Source of the DNA: Bdellovibrionota bacterium
Lineage (GTDB): Bacteria > Bdellovibrionota_C > UBA2361 > JBIKWN01
Assembly: GCA_044356295.1 (NCBI GenBank)
Contig: JBIKWN010000023.1
Span: 1 to 32,923 of the forward strand
Direction: 5' to 3'
Length of the DNA stretch: 32,923 nt
A program made the position numbers and the translations under genes. Within the stretch, counting starts at the first letter, position 1. Each line of letters starts with the position of its first letter. Under the pieces are notes generated by a model. It ran no database searches, was not told the origin of the DNA, and saw only the letters and a program-made list of their open reading frames with translations. Positions 964 through 16,403 of this stretch are shown piece by piece.

Positions 964-1365
964 TCAACCCCTTACCCGGTAGCTACTCCAACTCACCTGC
1001 CCTTCTTCAACAAGTTTTTTAAGCTTTTTCTGAGATTCTGATAATTTTGAATTGCCGCTTTTGACTTCAATAAAGGTAATCCCCTCATCTGGATCAAAAT
1101 AGATAAAATCAATTGGTTGTCCGATAAATTGCAGTGAGGTGCCAGGTTTTTGAATATCAACAGGGAAATCATCTAATAGAGGCGCAATGGATTCTACGAC
1201 TCTTCCAACACGAACTTCTGAACTTTTTTTCTGATGTAAAATCTTTTCTACTTCTTTATCAAATGAGAAAAGATACCACGCGATTCTTCTTCCAAAAATA
1301 AAAAGCAAAACAACAATAAGTCCTAGTAAAACATAGACTCCTTCTGTTGTAAGATAGTCAGACAT
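964..1365 (-). CDS. Holliday junction resolvase-like PD-(D/E)xK endonuclease (Endonuc_Holl family) with N-terminal membrane anchor
   Basis: N-terminal hydrophobic helix; motifs GRVVESIAP, FIGQPIDFIYF, FIEVKSG, LSESQKKLK typical of this family. Confidence 0.8.
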   Translation of the reverse strand: MSDYLTTEGVYVLLGLIVVLLFIFGRRIAWYLFSFDKEVEKILHQKKSSEVRVGRVVESIAPLLDDFPVDIQKPGTSLQFIGQPIDFIYFDPDEGITFIEVKSGNSKLSESQKKLKKLVEEGQVSWSSYRVRG

Positions 1366-4837: not shown

Positions 4838-5021
4838 ACGGTAGAGATTAAAGCAAAGAGGCGGGAAAGAAAACTATTTGAAATTATTGCTAATTTTGAT
4901 TTTTCTTTACCATAAAAACTTACTCCAACACGAGCTAACCCTTCGAAATAACGTATGAATATTCATATAAATAAATATTGAAATTTTAGACTAAGAATTA
5001 GAAGGTGCGTATCATAAAGCA

Positions 5022-6989
5022 ATGCGATTTCTCCCAGTTACAGACCAGACTAAATCAAACCCTAATACTGCTTTAGAACAGACTCAGAGCGATGACATAG
5101 CTTCATTAACGCTTCCCGAACGACTAGCTAAAGTATTAACAGTACCTTTCAATGAAATACTTCCAACAGTTCAGGGTAAGGAAATAAAAGCTCCGATCGG
5201 TGCTAAAAGCGCAGATGCATTTTCCAAAAATGAAAGTCTCCCCAAATTATTTGGGAAACTTGTTATAGATTTAGCAGCAACGGACCCTAAATTATTTACT
5301 GCCCGTTTCGGTGTTGCTGTACTCTCTGCTTTTTCATGGATTGCACTTGCAAAAGCAGGAAGTACTTTTACCCATGCCTTAGCTGTCTCTGATGCAGTAA
5401 AAGGTTTTCCATTTACAGAATCATTCCAAGCAATGGGGGTTGGCGCGCTAGCAGTTATTATTAAAAAATCACAAGATTTTCTTGCTCTTGAGCATGATAA
5501 AAACATTCAAAAATATACTTTTTCAAAAATCTTAAATCTTGTCACAGGTGTTCCTGCTCATCTCATTCGTGATAAAAAATTAAGTAAAGCATTAGATGAT
5601 TTGAAACGTCATGAATTCTCATTGAAGGAACTTTCGAAAGCTAGTTTTGGAATGGTGCAAGCAGCACTAATGGCAACGATTGCCGGTATTGCATTGGCTA
5701 CTAAAAATCCCCTCCTTACTTTTATCTGTATTGGTGGTCCTGCGATACTGATGCTTATCAATCAACAAAGAGCTGCAAAACGAAACCAAGAAGCTTTTGA
5801 TAGTACGTCCCTCGATCAAAGACAAGTAAACTACGGTCGCCAAACCGCATTTAAACCTCAAGCTCTAGAGATGCTCAAATCTTTTGGAACCGTTGGCAAA
5901 TATGTTAAGGGAATAGCTGATCGAGCATCAAGAATCGAAGATACCAAACATAAAGCATCAAAAAAGAATTTTTATGAAGGCTTACTGTCAACCTCAATGT
6001 TAGAAGGTGCTGGCCTTGTGGGGGGTGGACTCTATGCAGCGCTTACGATGCCATTCACTCAATTTTTATACACCACATTTTTAATTAAAGCCGCACAGAG
6101 TGCTGTAACATTATTTTCAGATAATACAGGTGTTATTCTTGAAAAACTTGATGCTGTAAAACTATTTAATGGTTTAGCTGACCACATCGGTACATTAAAG
6201 GGTGAAAAAGTTGATGTAAATCTTACAGCGGCACCTGAAATCAAAATTAAAAATTTATCGTTTACCTATCCTGGCAAAAAAAATCCTGCGCTTGAGGTTC
6301 AAGACCTTACGATACCGAAAGGTGCCAAAGTTTATGTCTGTGGACCAAGTGGAGCCGGCAAAACGACACTTGTAAAACTCATTGCTGGATACCTCGTACC
6401 TCAAGAAGGTTCGATTCTTGTAGGTGACTTTGATACAAGAACAAATTTTGTTCATTGTGCAATCGTTCCACAGGATGGTGAGGATTTTATTGGAGCTCGA
6501 TTCAGAGACATAATCGAACTTGGAAGTACAAACGAATCTACAAGAACTTTTCATGACGCAGCCCAATTAGCAGGATTCGACCAAATACTTAGAGACATGG
6601 GTGAAAAATCACAATCTGATATTCCAGGTTCAGAGCACATTCATGGTGGTTCATTTCCGCATGGTACCGATCTGTCGGGTGGACAAAAACAAAGATTAAA
6701 AATAGCTATGGCAGCATATAGTGGTGCTCCACTTATGTTTCTTGATGAACCGTGTGCTGGACTGGATATTGATGCAACAAATGCTATTAAAAATACACTG
6801 AACGGATTCAAAGGTGAAACAACAGTCATTCACGTTGAACATAATGCAAGTGCAGGGACTGATGCAGACTTAATCATCGTCGTAGAGGAAGGAAAAATTT
6901 CTGATATAGGCACTCATGATGAGCTTATGCGCCTCGGTAATAACTACTATTCACATTCATATAACGAGCAAAAAGCTCAATTTATATAA
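5022..6989 (+). CDS. ABC exporter, fused permease and ATP-binding domain (divergent)
   Basis: N-terminal TM segments; Walker A GPSGAGKT, signature LSGGQ, Walker B LMFLDEP, H-loop VEH, GTHDELM tail. Confidence 0.88.
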   Translation: MRFLPVTDQTKSNPNTALEQTQSDDIASLTLPERLAKVLTVPFNEILPTVQGKEIKAPIGAKSADAFSKNESLPKLFGKLVIDLAATDPKLFTARFGVAVLSAFSWIALAKAGSTFTHALAVSDAVKGFPFTESFQAMGVGALAVIIKKSQDFLALEHDKNIQKYTFSKILNLVTGVPAHLIRDKKLSKALDDLKRHEFSLKELSKASFGMVQAALMATIAGIALATKNPLLTFICIGGPAILMLINQQRAAKRNQEAFDSTSLDQRQVNYGRQTAFKPQALEMLKSFGTVGKYVKGIADRASRIEDTKHKASKKNFYEGLLSTSMLEGAGLVGGGLYAALTMPFTQFLYTTFLIKAAQSAVTLFSDNTGVILEKLDAVKLFNGLADHIGTLKGEKVDVNLTAAPEIKIKNLSFTYPGKKNPALEVQDLTIPKGAKVYVCGPSGAGKTTLVKLIAGYLVPQEGSILVGDFDTRTNFVHCAIVPQDGEDFIGARFRDIIELGSTNESTRTFHDAAQLAGFDQILRDMGEKSQSDIPGSEHIHGGSFPHGTDLSGGQKQRLKIAMAAYSGAPLMFLDEPCAGLDIDATNAIKNTLNGFKGETTVIHVEHNASAGTDADLIIVVEEGKISDIGTHDELMRLGNNYYSHSYNEQKAQFI

Positions 6990-6998
6990 TCTCTAGAG

Positions 6999-8309
6999 TT
7001 ACTCATTTATGAAAGCTTTATTCTGAAGTTCTTCAGGTGCACTTTGACATGCGCCGGCGTAGGCACAGTTTGAACATATCGTAGCCATTCCCTTTTTCGA
7101 CATTCTTGCATCATCCCAATGTGTCAAAAAATCTTCTTGATTGAATGTTATTTCACCATCATGAATGGTAAATGCTTTTCTGAGCTCTCTTACGTTATCT
7201 TCAATCTGTAAACTCACTAAGTTTAATGAAGCGCTATCAAACGCAATTACCGTCGTACGTTCTTCAAGACTTAATGATGCATCAGGAGAAGTATAGACAA
7301 ATTTCGCTTCAATATCTGCTGGCGTAAGATCCTTGTGTTTTTGCATCATGTAGTGAGAATAGATTCCACCCTGTAATGCATGTTTACTTATCAAAAACGG
7401 GCTTAGTCTTCTTTCATTTCTGTCCAGTCGCATTGCACCAGTTTTCCAGTCATAGATTTCCAATCGTCTATCACCTTCTATAGGAATATTTTCAGTTGAA
7501 TGAAAATATGAAAAATCGATGCCTGCATAAATTGTTACAGGAATTCCATCTACTTCTTGTAAAAAAGTTGGTACAGATTGGACTTCATAATCTTCATCCA
7601 GTTCGACATCCGCCCAATATTCAGGAGAAACGGATCCTTTTATAATTTGAGGGATAAAAATATCACGATAAAAAATCGTTAGTGAGTTTCTAATTTTTTC
7701 CTCCGCCTCAAGAAACTTTTCATCAAAATGCATCTGGCGAAAGCGGTTTTCAAATTGATGCTCAATTAATCTGAAATGTTGGGCGGAATCCCGAAATGTT
7801 GCTCCGTGACTTAGCGACACTTCTCGGTATGTTCGAAATCTTTTAATTGCTTCTTCAATAACATCTTCAAACTGAAGATTATTATTTGTTACTGATTCTT
7901 TTATCGCACTGTACACTGGATCTTTATAATCAGGGCTCGCAACTGCTCGGGTATAATCTCTCCAAACAAACAATGAATGAGCGATAATATTATGAACTAA
8001 TGTACCAACGAGTAGTGGCAAGGAATTTAAACTTTTACCTCTGGATATATATTTTGTAAGTTCATCTGCCTCTGGATGGTCGGCACCATACGATGCTGGT
8101 CCACCAAAATACCATGATTGCCTTTGACATAATGGCTCTGCTCTTGAAAATGACCAGCTACTTTTATAACTTTCAATGCCATCAATCCGGTACTCGTCAA
8201 GACTTTTGCCTTCGAAACGAGAAGACACACGAAGAGGACGAACATATTGAGGACCAATGACATGTCCAAATTCATTATTCTCTTGATTTTTATTAAGATC
8301 TACGTTCAT
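6999..8309 (-). CDS. PD-(D/E)xK nuclease, Cas4/AddB/RecB-like, probably Fe-S binding
   Basis: SFS...CQRQ (first Cys), GTLVHNII, AGIDF (motif II), IYDWKTG (motif III), QGGIY, C-terminal CSNCAYAGAC (CxxC-x5-C). Confidence 0.85.
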   Translation of the reverse strand: MNVDLNKNQENNEFGHVIGPQYVRPLRVSSRFEGKSLDEYRIDGIESYKSSWSFSRAEPLCQRQSWYFGGPASYGADHPEADELTKYISRGKSLNSLPLLVGTLVHNIIAHSLFVWRDYTRAVASPDYKDPVYSAIKESVTNNNLQFEDVIEEAIKRFRTYREVSLSHGATFRDSAQHFRLIEHQFENRFRQMHFDEKFLEAEEKIRNSLTIFYRDIFIPQIIKGSVSPEYWADVELDEDYEVQSVPTFLQEVDGIPVTIYAGIDFSYFHSTENIPIEGDRRLEIYDWKTGAMRLDRNERRLSPFLISKHALQGGIYSHYMMQKHKDLTPADIEAKFVYTSPDASLSLEERTTVIAFDSASLNLVSLQIEDNVRELRKAFTIHDGEITFNQEDFLTHWDDARMSKKGMATICSNCAYAGACQSAPEELQNKAFINE

Positions 8310-9553
8310 GGCTTTTTCTCGGTTACGACGCCAGCTATTGAATAATTATCTTGGTACGGATCAGTATCAACAAGAATACTAAATGGTGTTCCTCTTTTTG
8401 TTTCTTCTGTAATTAATCCTAAAATATTTTCAGGACATTGAAAGGTGCATTTCTCGCCAGACTTTCCAATCAGTTCTACTTTCAGACAGGCAGCATCAAT
8501 TTTATTCACAACAAGTGCAGGAATAATCGCTATCGGTGCTCTGCGACCTTTTCCAAAGAAATGATATCGTTTAAGTGATTCTTTCATCTGATGATGAAGT
8601 TCATTTAGACTACAAACAATTGTTGGAGATGGCATAGCGTCTGTTTGAAGTGTAACAGTCATGTCGCGCAATGCGTTAAAAAGAATTTTACTTCGTTCAA
8701 GGTTAGTTTCATTAAAAAACGACACAACCTTGGCAGACTCTCCAGCTATTACCGCATAAGCAACTACTTCGGCGATTTGTTTCAGAAGATAAAAGTTCTC
8801 TACCTCTTTTCCGAGTGAGGATTTTACAGATTGAATCCACACTGGAGCCGACTTCATATTAGTATTTAATATTCGTAAAGATGCTTCAATAAAAGATCCA
8901 GAAACTTCATCAATTTTTCTTGTTGAGGATAAAATTCCCAATGCTCCACATAGTATTGATGTTGAGTCAGATACTTTTAACGATTGAGGAATTGTTTTTT
9001 GGCGGAATTTATTTATTGCAGACTTTTCGGCAAGCGATAGTATTTCTGTATTATTTTGGCGAAGTCTATACCCATCATCTTTCTGCGAAAATGCAATCTG
9101 ATTGTTTGTTGTACCTATGATTCCCGTAAATGTCTTGCTCGGTGCTTCGAAAAAACTACCACTATAATGAGCTATAAAGATATTTGGATCTAACTGTGAC
9201 TTTTCAATATCATCCATAAAAAGCACAAGCACCCGTAACTGCTTTTGCTGCCAATTTTGACACTCATGGTAAAGAGCAAATAAAGCATCAGCAGATTTTT
9301 CAACAACGAGAACAATATCTCTTTGCTCAGCAATTACTTTTCTTATGGAATCTTGTGATAAAGAAGTTCTGAAATTGGGAAACTTAAGTTCTGGTGGGCA
9401 TGCAAACGCATCGGGAAGAGAAACTCCGTTTAGAGCTTGCTGTATTCTGATATCAACGGGAGATCCAAAATTTCCCGTTTTTAAGTAATACTCTATGGTT
9501 TGTTGTAAATCTTCAGTCCAATTATGAACAGAAGACGGAGCAAGGACACTCAT
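8306..9553 (-). CDS. Hypothetical protein (415 aa), middle gene of the helicase/nuclease operon
   Basis: Long ORF; starts 1 nt after the upstream stop and overlaps the downstream start (ATGA at 8306-8309); no recognisable catalytic motif. Confidence 0.75.
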   Translation of the reverse strand: MSVLAPSSVHNWTEDLQQTIEYYLKTGNFGSPVDIRIQQALNGVSLPDAFACPPELKFPNFRTSLSQDSIRKVIAEQRDIVLVVEKSADALFALYHECQNWQQKQLRVLVLFMDDIEKSQLDPNIFIAHYSGSFFEAPSKTFTGIIGTTNNQIAFSQKDDGYRLRQNNTEILSLAEKSAINKFRQKTIPQSLKVSDSTSILCGALGILSSTRKIDEVSGSFIEASLRILNTNMKSAPVWIQSVKSSLGKEVENFYLLKQIAEVVAYAVIAGESAKVVSFFNETNLERSKILFNALRDMTVTLQTDAMPSPTIVCSLNELHHQMKESLKRYHFFGKGRRAPIAIIPALVVNKIDAACLKVELIGKSGEKCTFQCPENILGLITEETKRGTPFSILVDTDPYQDNYSIAGVVTEKKP

Positions 9554-9554
9554 G

Positions 9555-12500
9555 TTAATCTTTCCTCCTCATCTTATACCTACCAATCAACGCAGCTCTC
9601 TCTTCAAAAGATCCGGCCGAAAATATAACGTACCGAACAGGAAGTCTTCGTTCTCCTTTTTCTCTTCCAGCTCTACCAGCATACTGTTTCTGCTCAATAA
9701 AACTGGAAAGTGGAGAGAATTCAATTACCATTCCTACGGTTGTATCATGTCCTTTTAAGAGTGCACTTGTTCCAACGACCCACGTTATTTCATCATTATG
9801 AAGTTTGGTGAGCGCTTCTTTGATTAAGGATTTTTCATTTTCTTTTTTAATATGGTTTCCACCGATTCCTGCAGAACAAACCTCTCTGCCGAAAAACATA
9901 TTTAATCTTTCTGCTAGAAATCGCGCGTGCTCAGTTGTTTGAGTGTAGATCATTCCCTTTCTATTTGGAGTTTCAATAGAATCCCTGAATAACGTCTTTA
10001 AAAGGATACTTTCTTTAGGGTGATCGATATGTTCTTTTTGTAAGAGCTTTGTTCTGATGGTATCAAGATCTAGTGGCTTTAAAGTACATAAATCCTCCAG
10101 TGTAATAGTTCCCGCAGGGGTATTATTACAAACAAGGCTTAGGGCATGTCGACACATCGGATCAAGTAATAGATATGCCCATGGATCTTTATGTATCGAA
10201 AGTTCTTTTAGGGTTAGCTGCCTTCCTTTAAATCCTCTTTCACTCATAAACTCGATCCACTCTGAGTGATACGTATTAATTTTTTCTATCGTACACCAAA
10301 CACCACGAGAAATTAGTTCATCTCTAATTTGAAGGGCAATATGAGCGGATTTTAAATATAAAAAGCTCTCGTAGTCTCCTTCTCCAGCTAACCCAGCTAT
10401 TGCTTTGCCAATGACTCCGGCAGGGATTTTTTCGGATCGCTTTAGTTGAGTCCTCAATTTTGTGGGTCTTGAAAATCTATCACGAGTTTTCTTGCCAGGA
10501 TTGTATTCTTTATCTAAGAGCCAATCAGGAAGTTCAGATAACTTCATGTGAGCATAGCTCGATAACTTCAAGTCGACGGTAGCAAAATCTGAAGATAACT
10601 GAACTGGAATCGGTACATATCTGATCGATTTTTGTCCTTTACTCATGTAGGTATCAAAAAGCTTCAAGTCTTTCATGAGTCTTTGACGACCATCATTTTG
10701 ATTTTCAGAAGGTGTAGCATCAAGGAGCGTAAAAGGAACACCCTGCATAAATGTTTGGTGCGCTATAGAAATTAAAGAGTGTCCTTCAGATGGAAGAAAT
10801 GTTTGGATACGCCTCTCTCTTCTACCAACTTCACTTCCGCCTTCATCTGCAATGACATGATCAGTATTCTTAAGAATAATTCTTCCGGACTGAATATCAT
10901 TCCGGAATGTTTGGTACGTCATAACGTAGAGCGTTGAAACTGATTTTTGTTTTTCATATATTTTTGATCGTTTTTCTGGGGTTATTTTTCCACCCATCGC
11001 GATAATTGACCCTTCAGGAATTGTTGTATATTCAAGTGCCTGATTTTTCACCTGCGCAATCAAGGACTGCGTCGGAACTAAGTGATACTGGTTTCCTCCT
11101 CGGTCAAGGACTCGTCCAAATATTCCAAATGATACAAAAGTTTTTCCGCCATTGGTGTCCATCCAAATAAGCGTTCGCGGTTGACGACAAGCAAATTCAA
11201 TTGCATTAGCCTGTCTCGGTCGGAAAGAGATCTTATCCTTACGAAAAACTCCTTTGGTATATTCGTGAAACTGTTCGGATGTGTCAATTTTTTCATCCCT
11301 AAAATCAAGTGCTTCATTTTGAGGAACTAAAAGTTTCCTACGATTTTGTTTTATTTTATTTATGGTATTAGGAGACTGTTCTTTTTTTGAAAATAATTTT
11401 ACATTATTTCTATTTAATTGATGATCATAAGGTGGTGCCAGTGATCCATCGCCGCTTCGTCCAGGAATAGCAAAATTACTATCTGGATCGAATCCCCCAT
11501 TTATATAAAATGCGAGCTTACCAGTCTCGACGCCAACCAAATTGGTAAATGAACGTAGTAAATCAGGGTCGCCAAGATCATAGGTACCAACGACAACTGT
11601 TTTCATCGCCTCATTAAAGGAATCTTGTGGAACAGAAAAGTGAAGTTCATCAAGCATCTTATCTAGTCTTTGATGAAGCACTTCTTGATTAGATTGAGGC
11701 AGATTAGACCAAAGGCTACTTAAAAGTTCTTTAATTGACGACCGAGTAACCAAGTCAATTTGAGATTCTGAAACATCTCCATATTTGCCACTATACCGCT
11801 CACCCCACTCTACTTTTTCTTTTACTATTTCAATCAACTTATTGAGTCGCGCTATTTGTGGAAGGAGGTCGTCTCTTTTTTCTCGCAATCCTTCCACATA
11901 ATGTTGATCACATGAAGCAAGCTGTTCCATTAAATCTTCTAATGAAAATTTATCTAATTGATCATCTGTAAGATCGCATGATTGTCTTTGAAAAGATGGA
12001 GAAATAATAATATCTTTATGCTCTGCGATAGAAGCAAGATACCCTCTAAGATCCAATGTAGAATCTAGTTGAAGTTCATTACTATATGTTCCCAAAAACT
12101 GTAGGGCATCATCTAACTTAGAAAATTCTGCTTTTTCTAATACTGCTATTGCTTTATGTGCTTCTGCTTCATTACTAGCACTTTTATGAATTAATAGTCT
12201 CGCCTGCCGAGAGGATATTTCGATTTCTTGATGAATTATTGAAGCAGATCCATGCATCCCTTCATACGATAATGCTCCGGTAGCAAGTTTTCGTGAAATT
12301 GCTGCTTGAATTTTTCGTCTTCTAAGTAATGAATCACTTAATGATCCTGTATATTGTGCATCAAGCTGCTTTGAAACTGTATCTATATCCTCCATCAGAT
12401 TATCAAGCGTATCTGGGATTGCTTCAAATGCTGTATCAGAGATCTTATCTTGTTCTTGGTAAATAATTCGTAGCGTTTCACAGTCAGCAACCATGTATTC

Positions 12501-14345
12501 TATGTTGCCACTTGCAGTAGGTCGTATGTCCCAGTTTTTTCTTGGTAAGCTTTTATTTAATGATCTTCCATAGGGATCCAAGAGCTTGAATTGATTATCA
12601 AGACTGTGTCCTGGCAGGCATGGAAGATAACCTCGACTAAAAACTGCAGTATCATAAGCCCCAACACCGTGTCCAACGAAATGTCCAAAGAATACATTAT
12701 TTTCAAAGGGATGATTCTGCTCAACGATTACTTTTGAAGGGTCTCTAAAGAGTGTATTTAATTTCGATATATCGAGTGGATGAAACATATCAAAGAGATA
12801 GGTAACTTTTTCATTTTCTCCAAGTATCTGGATGAAACTTGATCGAAGACTTCCATTGACTGAGACATTTTCTGAATCGACAAAGATAAAATCTTCTTTT
12901 ACTAGTGAATCGATTGCGTCATCAGCTTCGTTTTGAGACACAATCATGCGGTAAGGGAATTCGGTACTAAATTGATTTTCTAAGGGCTCAACCGGAGTAT
13001 CAGGACGAGGAGGTCGAAATAATGGACAAAATGCTTTTATAACAAAGACTGGGGGACCTTCACCAGAACGTCTAATCTTTCCAATAAAAGCACCCCTTTT
13101 CCCAGGATCAAGTTCAGGAACTGAGTACGTACAATGAGCCAGTGCGGAAATGACTCTGCCATTTACTCTCAGTTTTAACTTGGTACTACCACTCGACAAA
13201 AGTTGTGAGCCAGCAATGATGCAATCAGGAATTAAATAGACTGTATCCCGATGTAATGTAGAAAAATCAGTTACTGATAAATCGACGATAGGAAAATCAC
13301 TAAAAATGCTCGATACAGTTCCGTCAAGTTTGACAATTGGTGATAATCCATCAAGGTGATGTTTTAAATGATGTACGCCTTGTTGGCTATTTGTACATCG
13401 TGAAAAAAGGGAATTTTCATCACCAAACAAAGCACCCTTCATAAGGTCCCACTTTGTCTCATCAGTAAATAATTCAAACGATGATGGCTTAGTCGAATAA
13501 ACCGACTTAACTCTTATAGAGTTTTTTATAAGTAACAATCTTAGATCATTTGAAAGTGGAAGTTGGAGTTGATCTTTACCTTCAATATGTTCAGCTAATT
13601 CAGATACAATTGATCCTAATTCTTTATAAGCATTAAAAAAAACAAACCCAAAAGGTGTCCATGTAACACATACGTTGCCTTCGGGCATGACGCCAAATAA
13701 TTTGTAGATCTGTTCATTTGAAAATTCCTTTACTGTGCCATCCGTACCACTAAGTTCCGGAATTTTTTCTACTAATTTTTTATAAGCAGATACTCGTTCA
13801 TTGACAATACATCCAAGGACAAACGTTATCTCCTCAACAGGTGGATGATTAGTGAAAAAGTCTACATCCCTCGTTACAGCATGCTTTATCCCGGAATGAA
13901 TTCTTTGAGGTAGAATATCAGAAATTCGAGATTGATGATTCTTACGACTGATGCCCTGCATTATCTTTGTAAGAGCATCTTCTACCTCTGAATGTACTTT
14001 TACTGTTTTTTTCCGTTGATCAGCTATTTTTAGAATCAATAATTTTTGTGGGTGATCTAAGTTAAGCTCAGCAGGAAATTTTTTATCTAGAAACGATCTT
14101 GTTTTTGCATCCCATGGTTTTGAAAAAATGTAATCTTTCTGTTCCTTAGATAAGGATTGAATAATATTTTTTCCAATTTCTATCAGATCGCTCTTGATAC
14201 TTCTTACATCAATTAAATCAGAGATATCCCAATTCTTTGATGGCTGGGAAGGAAGAGCGCCAAGTACAACGCCAACATCAGGTCGTAGCTGAAATTGATC
14301 AGAAAAGGGTAAATGAGGTTGTTGATCAACCTTGGATTTTCGCAT
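9555..14345 (-). CDS. Large fusion of an RNase D-like DEDDy 3'-5' exonuclease and a Hef/Mph1-like SF2 helicase
   Basis: Exonuclease motifs FVDSE, QNHPFE, YDT, WDIRP, YMVAD. Helicase motifs RPRQ, DTNGGKT, LVPTQSL, TYQTFRND, IADEG, DATP, HPK, MIYTQT, GTSALLKGHD, QYAGRAGR. Confidence 0.8.
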   Translation of the reverse strand: MRKSKVDQQPHLPFSDQFQLRPDVGVVLGALPSQPSKNWDISDLIDVRSIKSDLIEIGKNIIQSLSKEQKDYIFSKPWDAKTRSFLDKKFPAELNLDHPQKLLILKIADQRKKTVKVHSEVEDALTKIMQGISRKNHQSRISDILPQRIHSGIKHAVTRDVDFFTNHPPVEEITFVLGCIVNERVSAYKKLVEKIPELSGTDGTVKEFSNEQIYKLFGVMPEGNVCVTWTPFGFVFFNAYKELGSIVSELAEHIEGKDQLQLPLSNDLRLLLIKNSIRVKSVYSTKPSSFELFTDETKWDLMKGALFGDENSLFSRCTNSQQGVHHLKHHLDGLSPIVKLDGTVSSIFSDFPIVDLSVTDFSTLHRDTVYLIPDCIIAGSQLLSSGSTKLKLRVNGRVISALAHCTYSVPELDPGKRGAFIGKIRRSGEGPPVFVIKAFCPLFRPPRPDTPVEPLENQFSTEFPYRMIVSQNEADDAIDSLVKEDFIFVDSENVSVNGSLRSSFIQILGENEKVTYLFDMFHPLDISKLNTLFRDPSKVIVEQNHPFENNVFFGHFVGHGVGAYDTAVFSRGYLPCLPGHSLDNQFKLLDPYGRSLNKSLPRKNWDIRPTASGNIEYMVADCETLRIIYQEQDKISDTAFEAIPDTLDNLMEDIDTVSKQLDAQYTGSLSDSLLRRRKIQAAISRKLATGALSYEGMHGSASIIHQEIEISSRQARLLIHKSASNEAEAHKAIAVLEKAEFSKLDDALQFLGTYSNELQLDSTLDLRGYLASIAEHKDIIISPSFQRQSCDLTDDQLDKFSLEDLMEQLASCDQHYVEGLREKRDDLLPQIARLNKLIEIVKEKVEWGERYSGKYGDVSESQIDLVTRSSIKELLSSLWSNLPQSNQEVLHQRLDKMLDELHFSVPQDSFNEAMKTVVVGTYDLGDPDLLRSFTNLVGVETGKLAFYINGGFDPDSNFAIPGRSGDGSLAPPYDHQLNRNNVKLFSKKEQSPNTINKIKQNRRKLLVPQNEALDFRDEKIDTSEQFHEYTKGVFRKDKISFRPRQANAIEFACRQPRTLIWMDTNGGKTFVSFGIFGRVLDRGGNQYHLVPTQSLIAQVKNQALEYTTIPEGSIIAMGGKITPEKRSKIYEKQKSVSTLYVMTYQTFRNDIQSGRIILKNTDHVIADEGGSEVGRRERRIQTFLPSEGHSLISIAHQTFMQGVPFTLLDATPSENQNDGRQRLMKDLKLFDTYMSKGQKSIRYVPIPVQLSSDFATVDLKLSSYAHMKLSELPDWLLDKEYNPGKKTRDRFSRPTKLRTQLKRSEKIPAGVIGKAIAGLAGEGDYESFLYLKSAHIALQIRDELISRGVWCTIEKINTYHSEWIEFMSERGFKGRQLTLKELSIHKDPWAYLLLDPMCRHALSLVCNNTPAGTITLEDLCTLKPLDLDTIRTKLLQKEHIDHPKESILLKTLFRDSIETPNRKGMIYTQTTEHARFLAERLNMFFGREVCSAGIGGNHIKKENEKSLIKEALTKLHNDEITWVVGTSALLKGHDTTVGMVIEFSPLSSFIEQKQYAGRAGREKGERRLPVRYVIFSAGSFEERAALIGRYKMRRKD

Positions 14346-14392
14346 TTTTTAATGGCGTTTATTGAAATTTTGCAAATAATTACAGACACATA

Positions 14393-14420
14393 ATTATACT
14401 TTGTATACCGTCTTACTCAA
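14393..14420 (-). promoter_or_regulatory. Putative sigma70 promoter of the helicase/nuclease operon
   Basis: Minus strand reads TTGAGT-16 nt-TATAAT, ending 47 nt upstream of the ATG at 14345; an ACTCA-N9-TGAGT inverted pair (14415-14433) overlaps the -35. Confidence 0.55.
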
Positions 14421-14578
14421 ATTTATTATGAGTTGAAATCAGGCAACTCTTTATCTTTAAAAATGTCTAAAAAATGGGGAAATTGTTCATTTTTGAGTTT
14501 TCTATTCGATTAAGACTCTCTACTTTTTGGGGATCAGATCAACTATTGGATGTATGACTGTTTATCCCATGTATGGCT

Positions 14579-15073
14579 TTACCTCGGAGAGTCTGTTCGC
14601 CATGAACTAGGCTGGCATGAAATAACTGGAGCTGTACGCTTACGAGAGGAAGAATTCAATCCACAACGATCAAAGTTATGTGGAGGATTATATACACCAT
14701 AACAGGTTTTGTTATCCTTTCTAGTAAAGGCAAAATGACGTGTGCCATTCTCGCACCCTGAGGTCACATTGAAGGTAAAAGTGGCTTTTTTGCCGGCTTT
14801 GATTTTTTTACTTCCACGCCACCTGACACTGTAGGGAAGGGTGATATAAATATCCCCAAAAGTTTTTTGTACAGTGCTCGCATGAACTTTAGTAATTGTT
14901 ATGTCTCCTGCATCTTTTGGGACTTTATAGGTAACTTGGCAAGGGCAAGCACACGCCTCGCTTACTATAGCTGAAAAGATTACAAAGGAGAGAAAAACTG
15001 AAGCTATTTTCACAAGAACCCCTACTGACAAATAAAAAATAAATCGCCGGACATTTAAGGTCTTGAGTACCAT
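14579..15073 (-). CDS. Hypothetical exported Cys-rich protein (start may be GTG at 15013)
   Basis: Signal-peptide-like KIASVFLSFVIFSAIVSEACA followed by a beta-rich mature region with several Cys. Confidence 0.6.
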   Translation of the reverse strand: MVLKTLNVRRFIFYLSVGVLVKIASVFLSFVIFSAIVSEACACPCQVTYKVPKDAGDITITKVHASTVQKTFGDIYITLPYSVRWRGSKKIKAGKKATFTFNVTSGCENGTRHFAFTRKDNKTCYGVYNPPHNFDRCGLNSSSRKRTAPVISCQPSSWRTDSPR

Positions 15074-15216
15074 ATTTCTGCACTAAACTGAAACAATATC
15101 TTGCCTCCGCTACGAAAAGCATTATGACCAGTGAGTGTTATTGAGAGGAACGAAAAGTGAGCTGTATTTCGCGGATTTAATTTGAATACCATCCGAACCT
15201 AGGTTAGCTTTAACCC

Positions 15217-16392
15217 ATGCAGTTGAACCTTAAACAGGTAGAGTTACCTATATCGAGTTATTCTTTTGAGCCCCATGAAGTTTTTCCTTCTGGATTAGAT
15301 ACTGGCTTTGTATCTACACGAAAAGCTACCTTCGATACGCTTGGTGAAGGAAATCCTGATGATTTTAGCTTTAGTTACATCCTTTATCCTTATAAAAGAG
15401 ACCCCCAAACAGGTGTTGTAAATATAGGTTCAAATAAAATTCCAATTTGTTCATATCAAGGTAAAAAATTCCTAAGTAGAACTCCAATAGATTATAGAGG
15501 TGATTCGCTCCTCTTTTCGGAAGTTACAATTGATACATTAGGAAGGACACCTCACACACAAAGATTTGGTGTTATGCGACTAACTGAATCAGGCGCCGAA
15601 TTAACAGATATTTCCTATTTACAAGAGGGTCGAATCCCTTTTCAAATGATTACTAGAGATTCTGTTTTTACTGTTGCTCAGTCATTTGCTAGTGGATTAC
15701 CCGAGACGCATCCCGACCCTCAAATATTAGTTTTAGGAGACAATGAAGATCGATTATCTCTGAAAGAAAAATTTGCTGGTCTTTTAGGCTCACTTGCATC
15801 TCTACCTCTCGCATTTAGCCCTGGACCAATCTCTGAGTATGGACTCTTTCTTGGTATAGACCCAGAAAATTCTGATCAACTAGGATATTTTATTCAAGAT
15901 CGAAAAAGTGAACGATTCTTTTTGCATGGATATATTCCCCCATTTGATGAGGAAACGATGCCCAATAAACATTGCATTAATGAAGACGGAATAGTGGTCG
16001 GACTTTATCTCGACAGCGATGACAGTTCTTTTCATCCCATGACTTGGAATCGTTATGGATATACACAGGCTCTGAGGATTCCAGAAAATCACAAAGGAAG
16101 TGAAATATACATCACTGGGATAACAAGTATATTTATTGCTGGTGAAAAATATAGTTTTGTATCTGCTGAATTTGTAGATCACACGAGTCGCTCTTCTCCC
16201 TATGGGTGGATTATCGATGATAATTTCTTTGGAGAAGGTTTTGCTGCGACTCCATTTCCATTAGATTTTCAAGATGCAATCCCATCTCAATTAAAATCAG
16301 TACACCAAGGTGGTATTACTTTATTACAGTATGAAAATTTTCCAGGAAAAGTCTCTACGGGAATATTTTCACCAACGATGGTATCGTTATAA
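15217..16392 (+). CDS. Hypothetical protein, possibly beta-propeller-like
   Basis: 391-aa ORF; INEDGIVVG and ITGIT segments resemble HAF-type repeats. Confidence 0.6.
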   Translation: MQLNLKQVELPISSYSFEPHEVFPSGLDTGFVSTRKATFDTLGEGNPDDFSFSYILYPYKRDPQTGVVNIGSNKIPICSYQGKKFLSRTPIDYRGDSLLFSEVTIDTLGRTPHTQRFGVMRLTESGAELTDISYLQEGRIPFQMITRDSVFTVAQSFASGLPETHPDPQILVLGDNEDRLSLKEKFAGLLGSLASLPLAFSPGPISEYGLFLGIDPENSDQLGYFIQDRKSERFFLHGYIPPFDEETMPNKHCINEDGIVVGLYLDSDDSSFHPMTWNRYGYTQALRIPENHKGSEIYITGITSIFIAGEKYSFVSAEFVDHTSRSSPYGWIIDDNFFGEGFAATPFPLDFQDAIPSQLKSVHQGGITLLQYENFPGKVSTGIFSPTMVSL

Positions 16393-16403
16393 AAATCAAC
16401 AGT

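Follow-up and report, generated by a model that had tools for sequence, protein, structure and literature searches.

The superfamily 2 (SF2) helicases Hef, FANCM and Mph1 are central to the rescue of stalled replication forks in archaea and eukaryotes and, to our knowledge, are usually treated as being without bacterial counterparts. The subject here is P0001, a 1596-amino acid (aa) protein encoded in a 32,923-nucleotide stretch of DNA (hereafter the window; contig JBIKWN010000023.1, assembly GCA_044356295.1) from a Bdellovibrionota bacterium, in which a predicted DEDDy exonuclease precedes a predicted Hef-like helicase. Our reading, to which we give a probability of roughly 0.5, is that P0001 is a natural 'Rosetta-stone' fusion drawn from a module widespread in Bdellovibrionota, and that it acts as a subunit of an ATP-driven, multi-nuclease processor of replication forks or DNA ends. 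The module would comprise, at about even odds, a long-insertion Hef-like SF2 helicase, a DEDDy 3′-5′ exonuclease and a RecJ-type nuclease, a combination undescribed as far as our searches extended.

P0001 shares with Hef its SF2 clade, its motif style (TPQ..ND, HPK, Q.xGRxGR) and a homologous insertion domain. Unlike Hef, it lacks the ERCC4/XPF nuclease and HhH2, ending 39 aa after motif VI; its insertion is 231 aa long where that of Hef has about 175, its place in the tree is outside the classical Hef clade, and with its best NCBIfam model, 'Hef nuclease' (E 1e-22), it reaches 80.1 bits against an equivalog cut-off of 610. The archaeal protein HAN is described, in the available sections of two reports, as a RecJ-like 3′-5′ exonuclease that associates with Hef, which stimulates it, and that has been implicated in repairing stalled forks (PMC5717133, PMC6158738). 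As in the Hef-HAN pair, a Hef-type helicase is here teamed with a 3′-5′ exonuclease and RecJ-family proteins, although the exonuclease of P0001 is a DEDDy domain in cis whereas HAN is a DHH protein bound in trans. P0001 resembles WRN in placing a DEDDy 3′-5′ exonuclease ahead of an SF2 helicase in one chain, but the WRN helicase is of the RecQ type, with RQC and HRDC domains, and P0001 has a Hef-type helicase, with 457 aa ahead of the exonuclease and ∼390 aa separating the exonuclease from the helicase; the two fusions arose independently.

Within bacteria, MrfA and MrfB form a helicase-exonuclease pair, and MrfAB and DinG, like P0001 in its putative repair role, combine a bacterial SF2 helicase with a DnaQ-like 3′-5′ exonuclease for DNA repair; the helicase parts of DinG and MrfA have no homology to P0001 beyond the SF2 core. 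AddAB and RecBCD likewise join a helicase motor to nucleases for both strand polarities, and the P0001 operon encodes a protein, P0159, with the AddB/Cas4-type iron-sulphur (Fe-S) PD-(D/E)XK signature, but the AddAB and RecBCD motors belong to SF1 (UvrD-like) and have no DEDDy domain. The bacterial long-insertion helicases annotated as 'ERCC4-related helicase' (COG1111) agree with P0001 in insertion length, short C-terminal tail, profile score and tree position, and have the same partners (DEDDy exonuclease, RecJ-like protein, PD-(D/E)XK nuclease), P0001 differing from them as the only exonuclease-fused member seen and in its DEGG motif II. The DinG protein of Staphylococcus and Bacillus carries an N-terminal DEDD exonuclease domain on a bacterial helicase, according to the available sections of one report (PMC3270479); unlike P0001, it has an XPD-type Fe-S 5′-3′ helicase and an exonuclease that is DEDDh/epsilon-like.

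Gene, domains and singularity of P0001

The P0001 open reading frame (ORF) occupies nt 9555..14345 of the minus strand and begins with ATG. The organism is an uncultured one, and its LysS is 73% identical to that of a metagenome-assembled genome labelled as Bdellovibrionota. Lake-water metagenome assemblies contain this stretch, and contigs from two other studies bear on the frame. Those of the second study (X2) are 100% identical to the window over nt 10769-12127, with no insertions or deletions, and those of the third (X3) are 95-99% identical over nt 11339-11591, 11707-11874 and 11914-12457, again without indels; both span the exonuclease-helicase junction and leave the frame unchanged. Because independent contigs cover the junction in this way, the frame is not an assembly artefact, and an assembly or frameshift error joining two overlapping genes is scarcely credible, even though the window is part of a metagenome-assembled genome and the same-genus genome G002 has separate exonuclease and helicase genes overlapping by 71 nt. 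The X3 variant (window 11339-13182) shows 18 substitutions over ∼1150 nt (∼98% identity), which indicates that at least two strains, in different samples, carry the fusion. It differs from the window in 17 codons, 11 of them synonymously, while four of the six non-synonymous codons lie within the linker (aa 969-991), where six codons are changed in all; codons 400-402, in the N-terminal region, have three synonymous changes. The gene is real and under purifying selection. Scans for promoters and terminators gave nothing above chance.

The exonuclease domain (Table 1) is predicted to be of the DEDDy, DnaQ-like type that includes RNase D, Rrp6 and WRN exo. Pfam DNA_pol_A_exo1 matches aa 465-631 (E 1.3e-8; 35.3 bits, the cut-off being 23.6) and is covered at positions 1-167 of 173, and the motifs FVDSE (aa 488-492, nt 12870-12884), QNHPFE (ending at E548), YDT (D565-T566), WDIRP (at W605) and YMVAD (aa 617-621, nt 12483-12497) can be located, giving D490, E492, E548, Y617 and D621 as putative catalytic residues and D565 as a further invariant Asp. 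When aa 440-1020 were aligned with 12 relatives, six from the representative search described below and six rnd-like proteins of ∼320-357 aa from related genomes, the ExoI (D490/E492) and ExoIII (Y617/D621) columns were conserved in 11-12 of the 12. ExoII reads F-E rather than F-D; since the Glu is invariant in all 12 relatives, E548 is a family trait and not a mark of decay, and in the best solved match the D of 'FD' occupies its column. The rnd-like DEDDy family occurs in the window genome itself (G000:C85:26556-27452) as well as in related genomes (loci L002-L007), with an invariant ExoII 'HNAxFE' (Glu for Asp) and a C-terminal 'GAPxYEGxFGxAS' that replaces HRDC domains.

Searched against the PDB, the exonuclease family profile found 45 distinct sequences, the top matches being a reconstructed diDNase ancestor, NrnC, Rrp6, Pol I exo, RNase D (1yt3, E 1e-18) and WRN exo, for which E is 2.6e-15 with the full-length chain and 1.2e-13 with the exonuclease domain. 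No HRDC family match was present among Pfam hits to P0001 at E ≤ 0.01, which sets the protein apart from RNase D proper. The place of HRDC is taken by a helical post-exonuclease module containing two copies of a 'G-x-x-Y-E/S-G-x-x-G' motif, of which the short rnd-like proteins have one and exonuclease proteins of ∼650 aa have two. A hidden Markov model (HMM) built from five helicase-associated exonuclease proteins matches aa 458-878 (E 8e-25), and hhalign aligns the P0001 exonuclease and module with such proteins at 98.6% over 419 columns; the homology is taken to extend over aa 458-888.

The helicase part is matched by Pfam ResIII/DEAD (aa 1039-1168) and Helicase_C (aa 1452-1561; 23.9 bits against a cut-off of 23.5). 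In RecA1 the motifs are Q (Q1045, nt ∼11213), I (G1067 K1068 T1069), Ia (P1091 T1092), II (D1167 E1168 G G) and III (A1210 T P), and in RecA2 they are HPK (1442-1444), V (T1526 S ... G1532. D1534) and VI (Q1554 Y A G R1558 A G R1561, with R1561 at nt ∼9663). A sequence search of the PDB with this part retrieved Pyrococcus furiosus Hef (1wp9) at E 6.7e-17, the next match standing at E 0.069, and the HPK of P0001 aligns to that of Hef. A profile of 21 long-insertion helicases, P0001 included, found Hef (7e-93), FANCM (9e-58) and LGP2 (2e-54) in the PDB, followed by an ancestral Dicer helicase, MDA5, RIG-I and Dicer, with the remaining SF2 helicases ranking lower; the P0001 helicase matches the long-insertion profile A4, which contains it, at E 9e-136. 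The helicase can thus be assigned, by sequence comparison, to the Hef/FANCM/RIG-I/Dicer clade of SF2, with a homologous insertion between the RecA domains.

Insertion classes were set in an alignment of 117 helicases by the number of residues from motif III to HPK. Shorter insertions, with a distance of 156-210 residues (mostly 165-190), are found in 98 sequences, and a group of 17 with short C-terminal tails has long insertions, the distance being 237-326; one further sequence, with a distance of 205, was classed as short. On the strength of its 231 residues and 39-aa tail, P0001 was placed with the long class, the insertion of which aligns with the classical Hef insertion in hhalign (97.1%, E 6e-11, 165 columns). 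A quick maximum-likelihood tree of 61 rows unites the classical Hef sequences in a clade with support 100 and places P0001 outside it among bacterial sequences, in a weak grouping (support 87) with the helicase of G002 and a few others; this weak grouping and the very long branch of P0001 (1.67) leave its exact position unsure. Identity in the helicase is at most ∼24-28%, even to the same-genus member. Pfam yielded no match to ERCC4 or HhH in P0001, Pfam and NCBIfam yielded none to RecQ-family, RQC or HRDC models, and no RecQ protein appeared in the PDB search with the helicase.

An earlier note, drawn from the sequence alone, had described at this position a 1596-aa protein joining a DEDDy exonuclease to a Hef/FANCM-like helicase, with a long helical inter-RecA insertion ending in HPK and a WRN-like order but a non-RecQ helicase. 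The ORF, the Pfam domains, the motif positions, the conserved catalytic columns and the profile searches above bear out this description, while its term 'RNase D-like' fits the catalytic domain and not the rest, where no HRDC was detected. The note mentioned neither the orphan N-terminus of 457 aa nor the nucleases in the operon, nor the island in which they lie.

Several of these matches would also suit a machine for RNA processing or decay, in which a RIG-I/Dicer-type helicase feeds an RNase D/Rrp6-type exoribonuclease, like Mtr4 with Rrp6. NrnC, Rrp6 and RNase D are among the best solved matches of the exonuclease profile, the helicase profile strongly matches LGP2, MDA5, RIG-I and Dicer, and HAN also degrades single-stranded RNA, according to the available sections of PMC6158738. 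This alternative nevertheless appears improbable, as the nearest helicase relatives, Hef and FANCM, are DNA enzymes and the exonuclease profile matches WRN exo and Pol I exo as well. The recurrent partners of the helicase, moreover, are RecJ and Cas4/AddB-type nucleases, which are DNA enzymes.

The first 457 aa of P0001 have no match in Pfam, NCBIfam, PADLOC, PHROGs or the ESM Atlas, a word-based search with the first 460 aa returned only P0001 itself, and the profile of helicase-associated exonuclease proteins does not extend to this region. A degenerate RecJ was considered for it and rejected for want of any signal (hhalign against the RecJ profile, E 0.38).

The exonuclease-helicase fusion is unique in everything searched. 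With aa 400-1596 as the query, HMMER returned 256 matches at E ≤ 1e-3 from 1.84 billion representative proteins, of which the only one below 1e-30 is a 114-aa fragment identical to the C-terminus of P0001; no full-length relative was found in that collection. Among the 150 best of the 256 matches, eight hit the exonuclease part at E < 1e-5 and none of the eight has a helicase: four are 256-329 aa long, and in the other four Pfam recognises exonuclease domains, in some together with RecJ domains, and no helicase domain. Whole P0001 retrieved only itself in the word-based homologue search and no relative in the species-genome locus search, and 41 related genomes gave domain-level matches only, in frames of 322-1275 aa. 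In the species-genome locus search a narrower helicase alignment found three loci, and P0004, a RecJ-exonuclease fusion, found no related loci.

The long-insertion helicase family in Bdellovibrionota

At E ≤ 1e-20 the long-insertion helicase profile hits 58 of 124 genomes of the phylum, including 37 of the 73 of high quality, and such a helicase is carried by 25 of the 36 genomes in the best-sampled family; in the window genome P0001 is the only match. Hef-like helicases therefore make up a large bacterial family and are not rare in bacteria, and the earlier note's view of them as mostly archaeal or eukaryotic calls for revision.

Partners were surveyed at the loci of the 57 other genomes by scoring ORFs within two genes of the helicase with purpose-built HMMs, the RecJ model being kept free of helicase columns from fused proteins. 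A RecJ-helicase fusion is present at 20 of the 57 loci and a separate RecJ-like neighbour at 11; neighbouring genes encode a DNA_pol_A_exo1 protein (599-980 aa) at five loci, a PD-(D/E)XK protein of ∼500 aa homologous to P0159 at eight, and an ABC protein like that of the window at two. None of these partners was detected at 17 loci, several of which lie on short contigs, and an exonuclease-helicase fusion was detected at none of the 57. Representative cases were confirmed with Pfam. Altogether, a RecJ-type, DEDDy or Cas4-like nuclease is linked to the helicase by fusion or adjacency at 40 of the 57 loci.

In G002, of the same genus, and in G019, both among the five loci with an exonuclease neighbour, the genes overlap and follow the order exonuclease, helicase, RecJ, and RecJ-exonuclease fusions (P0004 and P0118) were found among the matches of the representative search. 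By the classical fusion argument, the occurrence of RecJ-helicase, RecJ-exonuclease and exonuclease-helicase fusions points to the three components acting together, and the presence of exonuclease and helicase as neighbouring genes in relatives suggests that the parts fused in P0001 probably do so too. What is novel is the fusion of a conserved gene neighbourhood, the exonuclease-helicase partnership being already present as adjacent genes; the architecture that had been called unusual for bacteria is so as a fusion and not as a pairing. A literature search, in which most subscription journals were outside coverage, found no paper on bacterial Hef-like helicases or on their RecJ or exonuclease fusions.

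Other features of these loci vary. Several annotated relatives of the module sit among housekeeping genes (infC, argS, trpE/G). In a subgroup of genus g8 (L114-L116, L137, L140, L141, L143) the helicases are 1025-1220 aa long, with an N-terminal extension of ∼400-500 aa that has no Pfam family, and a P0159-like PD-(D/E)XK gene product of ∼500-600 aa adjoins the helicase at seven of the eight loci of the subgroup (not L146). Proteins of 936 aa (L101:4626-7436, G021) and 898 aa (L100:6662-9358, G006), also without a Pfam family, are encoded next to Hef-like helicase genes and are homologous to each other (E ∼1e-17), and may represent another recurrent partner. In G003 an Eco57I-type N6-methyltransferase/restriction-modification gene (L104:10238-12358) and ORFs of ∼700 aa lie beside an 843-aa Hef-like helicase, a hint that at least one relative has this helicase in a defence island.

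Operon partners and genomic island

Table 1. Features of P0001 and of the surrounding strain-specific stretch, with positions in the window.
Feature	Position (nt)	Strand	Basis or remark
P0001 N-terminal region, aa 1-457	12975..14345	-	Orphan; last ∼100 aa beta-rich by eye
P0001 predicted DEDDy 3′-5′ exonuclease domain, aa ∼458-640	12426..12974	-	Pfam DNA_pol_A_exo1, alignment, profile against PDB
P0001 post-exonuclease module, aa ∼641-900	11646..12425	-	Alignment, HMM, hhalign
P0001 linker, aa ∼901-1029	11259..11645	-	Outside both family profiles (exonuclease, helicase)
P0001 helicase RecA1 domain, aa ∼1030-1230	10656..11258	-	Pfam, alignments
P0001 inter-RecA insertion domain, aa ∼1231-1440 (enlarged, Hef-type, helical)	10026..10655	-	Insertion length, hhalign
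P0001 helicase RecA2 domain, aa ∼1441-1596	9558..10025	-	Pfam, alignments; ends in 39-aa tail
P0158, 415 aa	8306..9553	-	Holds the position of RecJ in related operons; starts 1 nt after the P0001 stop
P0159, 436 aa, putative Cas4/AddB-type PD-(D/E)XK nuclease	6999..8309	-	4-nt overlap with P0158
ABC-type ATPase, 655 aa, hydrophobic N-terminal half	5022..6989	+	Pfam ABC_tran; possible fourth component
P0160, 164 aa, hydrophobic N-terminus, cysteine-rich	14579-15073	-	No family; island ORF
P0161, 391 aa	15217-16392	+	No family; island ORF
Strain-specific stretch, ∼11.5 kb, six ORFs	4885..16400		Between lysS and an alpha/beta-hydrolase gene

P0001 is followed in its operon by P0158 and P0159. P0158 has no Pfam hit (neither DHH nor DHHA1) and no relative in the word-based search, and among the 124 phylum genomes it occurs in one, its own. 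Its ESM Atlas matches by features (0.85-0.88) and by structure (template-modelling score 0.46-0.47) are all to DHH/RecJ clusters, each below the bar of the tool, and hhalign against the RecJ profile gives E 0.0046 with a probability of 7.6%. In a MAFFT alignment with RecJ, GTTN falls on GTTN, QNN stands at the place of DHH, and FGKGRRAP lies over FGxGNPxP. P0158 is probably, on these signals, a RecJ-like protein without catalytic residues.

P0159 matches Pfam PDDEXK_1 (27 bits against a cut-off of 22). Across P0159 and four helicase-adjacent homologues, D265, D287-W-K289, Q313 and Y317 are invariant (5/5), as are C61, H106, C412, C415 and C421, so that four Cys, one N-terminal and three C-terminal (C-x2-C-x5-C), are retained. 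This is a Cas4/AddB-type signature with intact motifs, and from the family the Cys residues are predicted to bind an Fe-S cluster. In G036 an ABC gene overlaps that of the helicase; the ABC-type ATPase of the window is homologous over its full length to the product of this gene (E 1.3e-57, aa 81-643), and the G036 locus also holds a P0159 homologue (E 7e-10). Elsewhere in the window genome (93.6% complete) PDDEXK_1 matches only one other ORF, of 351 aa on contig C55, and no ORF of AddA, AddB or RecB size contains it. A role for the module as a substitute for AddAB was considered and rejected, since many genomes with the helicase have AddB-like ORFs as well.

The operon lies in an island. Between lysS and the alpha/beta-hydrolase gene, which are ∼315 bp apart in G002 and ∼620 bp apart in G001, both of the same genus, the window contains ∼11.5 kb, and P0160 and P0161 are missing from the genomes of the same genus, as is the remainder of the stretch. 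No tRNA, integrase or convincing flanking repeats were found at the island, the GC (guanine plus cytosine) content of which is that of its flanks. PADLOC-DB v2 gave no system-level match for P0001, P0158, P0159 or their relatives; at the level of motifs, P0001 matched PbeA (9.8e-8) and PsyrT (1e-7), P0159 matched a Cas4-like model (0.006), and P0158 matched nothing.

It is conceivable, if on balance unlikely, that the island is an anti-phage or anti-plasmid defence system in which P0001 detects and unwinds foreign DNA and the exonuclease and Cas4-like nuclease destroy it, as in Hachiman or Cas3. The absence of the whole stretch from both same-genus genomes points in this direction, as do the near-orphan status of P0001, P0158 and P0159 (1/124 and 2/124 phylum genomes for the operon partners), the long branch and fast divergence of P0001, the patchy distribution and shuffled domain combinations of the helicase family, the Eco57I-type methyltransferase gene beside one relative's helicase, and weak PADLOC similarities, which extend to one between the exonuclease protein of G002 and the exonuclease part of BrxHI. 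The PADLOC matches are, however, generic matches to helicase motifs, none at system level, and nothing else in the island is recognised as a defence gene, an integrase or a mark of a mobile element. Several of the annotated module relatives, furthermore, lie among housekeeping genes, and its presence in 25 of the 36 genomes of the best-sampled family makes the helicase look more like a core function.

Outside the island, a 133-aa ORF beside a lolD-like ABC gene (window 964-1365, minus strand) matches Pfam Endonuc_Holl (E 9e-16), an endonuclease family related to archaeal Holliday junction resolvase, and weakly VRR_NUC.

Proposed function and significance

It is proposed that the helicase domain of P0001 would bind branched or double-stranded DNA and translocate on it by ATP hydrolysis, as Hef and FANCM do, and that the 3′-ended strand freed in this way would be degraded by the protein's own DEDDy domain. 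The 5′-ended strand would be handled by the co-translated Cas4-like Fe-S nuclease P0159, and P0158, its DHH motif lost, may serve as a non-catalytic subunit for single-stranded DNA binding or scaffolding. The outcome would be a helicase-driven, dual-polarity nuclease for stalled forks or DNA ends, a bacterial analogue of archaeal Hef-HAN. ATP-driven translocation, 3′-5′ degradation, 5′-strand processing and scaffolding are each taken from the properties of the Hef, FANCM, DEDDy, Cas4/AddB and RecJ families. Between repair or recombination and attack on foreign DNA, we lean slightly towards the former.

Several observations weigh against a fork- or end-processing role. The location in an island and the orphan status of the three operon proteins fit defence at least as well; the nearest solved relatives of the exonuclease include the RNA enzymes NrnC, Rrp6 and RNase D; the 457-aa N-terminus has no explanation from homology searches; the signals linking P0158 to RecJ are weak and make its RecJ-like nature a lead; and AddB-like genes are present in many helicase-bearing genomes of the phylum. 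The helicase itself is altered, differing at 17 of the 49 columns conserved in at least 85% of the aligned sequences. Its motif II is DEGG (G1170), whereas 111 of the 116 other aligned helicases have H at this position and all 116 read DExH, DExD or DExQ, with DEGG in none; EE of motif V is replaced by LK, and QR of motif VI by QY (R1555 to Y). These changes may impair the coupling of ATP hydrolysis to translocation.

Taken with the very long branch and with an operon partner, P0158, that seems to be without a DHH motif, such changes could signify that P0001 is an enzymatically dead or decaying relic, a fused copy adrift, which we consider very unlikely. The other 32 of the 49 conserved columns are kept, among them Walker A (K1068), Walker B (D1167/E1168) and the motif VI arginines (R1558/R1561), all of which are intact, as are all the exonuclease metal ligands; the 4.8-kb frame is open, the codon changes in the second strain are largely synonymous and free of indels, and the operon junctions are tight.

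A fuller history in keeping with the fork- or end-processing reading can be offered more tentatively. Many Bdellovibrionota, and other phyla represented in metagenomes, may possess a counterpart of Hef-HAN/FANCM in the form of a complex of a Hef-like translocase, RecJ and a DEDDy exonuclease, whose physical association the three kinds of fusion would reveal. The copy in the window would then be a horizontally moving, fast-evolving version that carries an inactivated RecJ, has recruited a Cas4-like nuclease and an ABC ATPase and has acquired a new 457-aa domain, perhaps with re-purposing against foreign DNA.

On the evidence of the survey, the Hef/FANCM/Mph1 clade has a large bacterial branch that is systematically linked to nucleases, and P0001 is the single fusion in which DEDDy exonuclease and helicase are tied directly. 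This predicts a machine of a helicase and two nucleases that is open to experimental test, and P0001, WRN-like in its order and with a Hef motor, may offer a compact single-chain model for the coupling of unwinding to 3′-5′ degradation. Should the island copy turn out to serve in defence, it would represent a new defence system assembled from components of repair.

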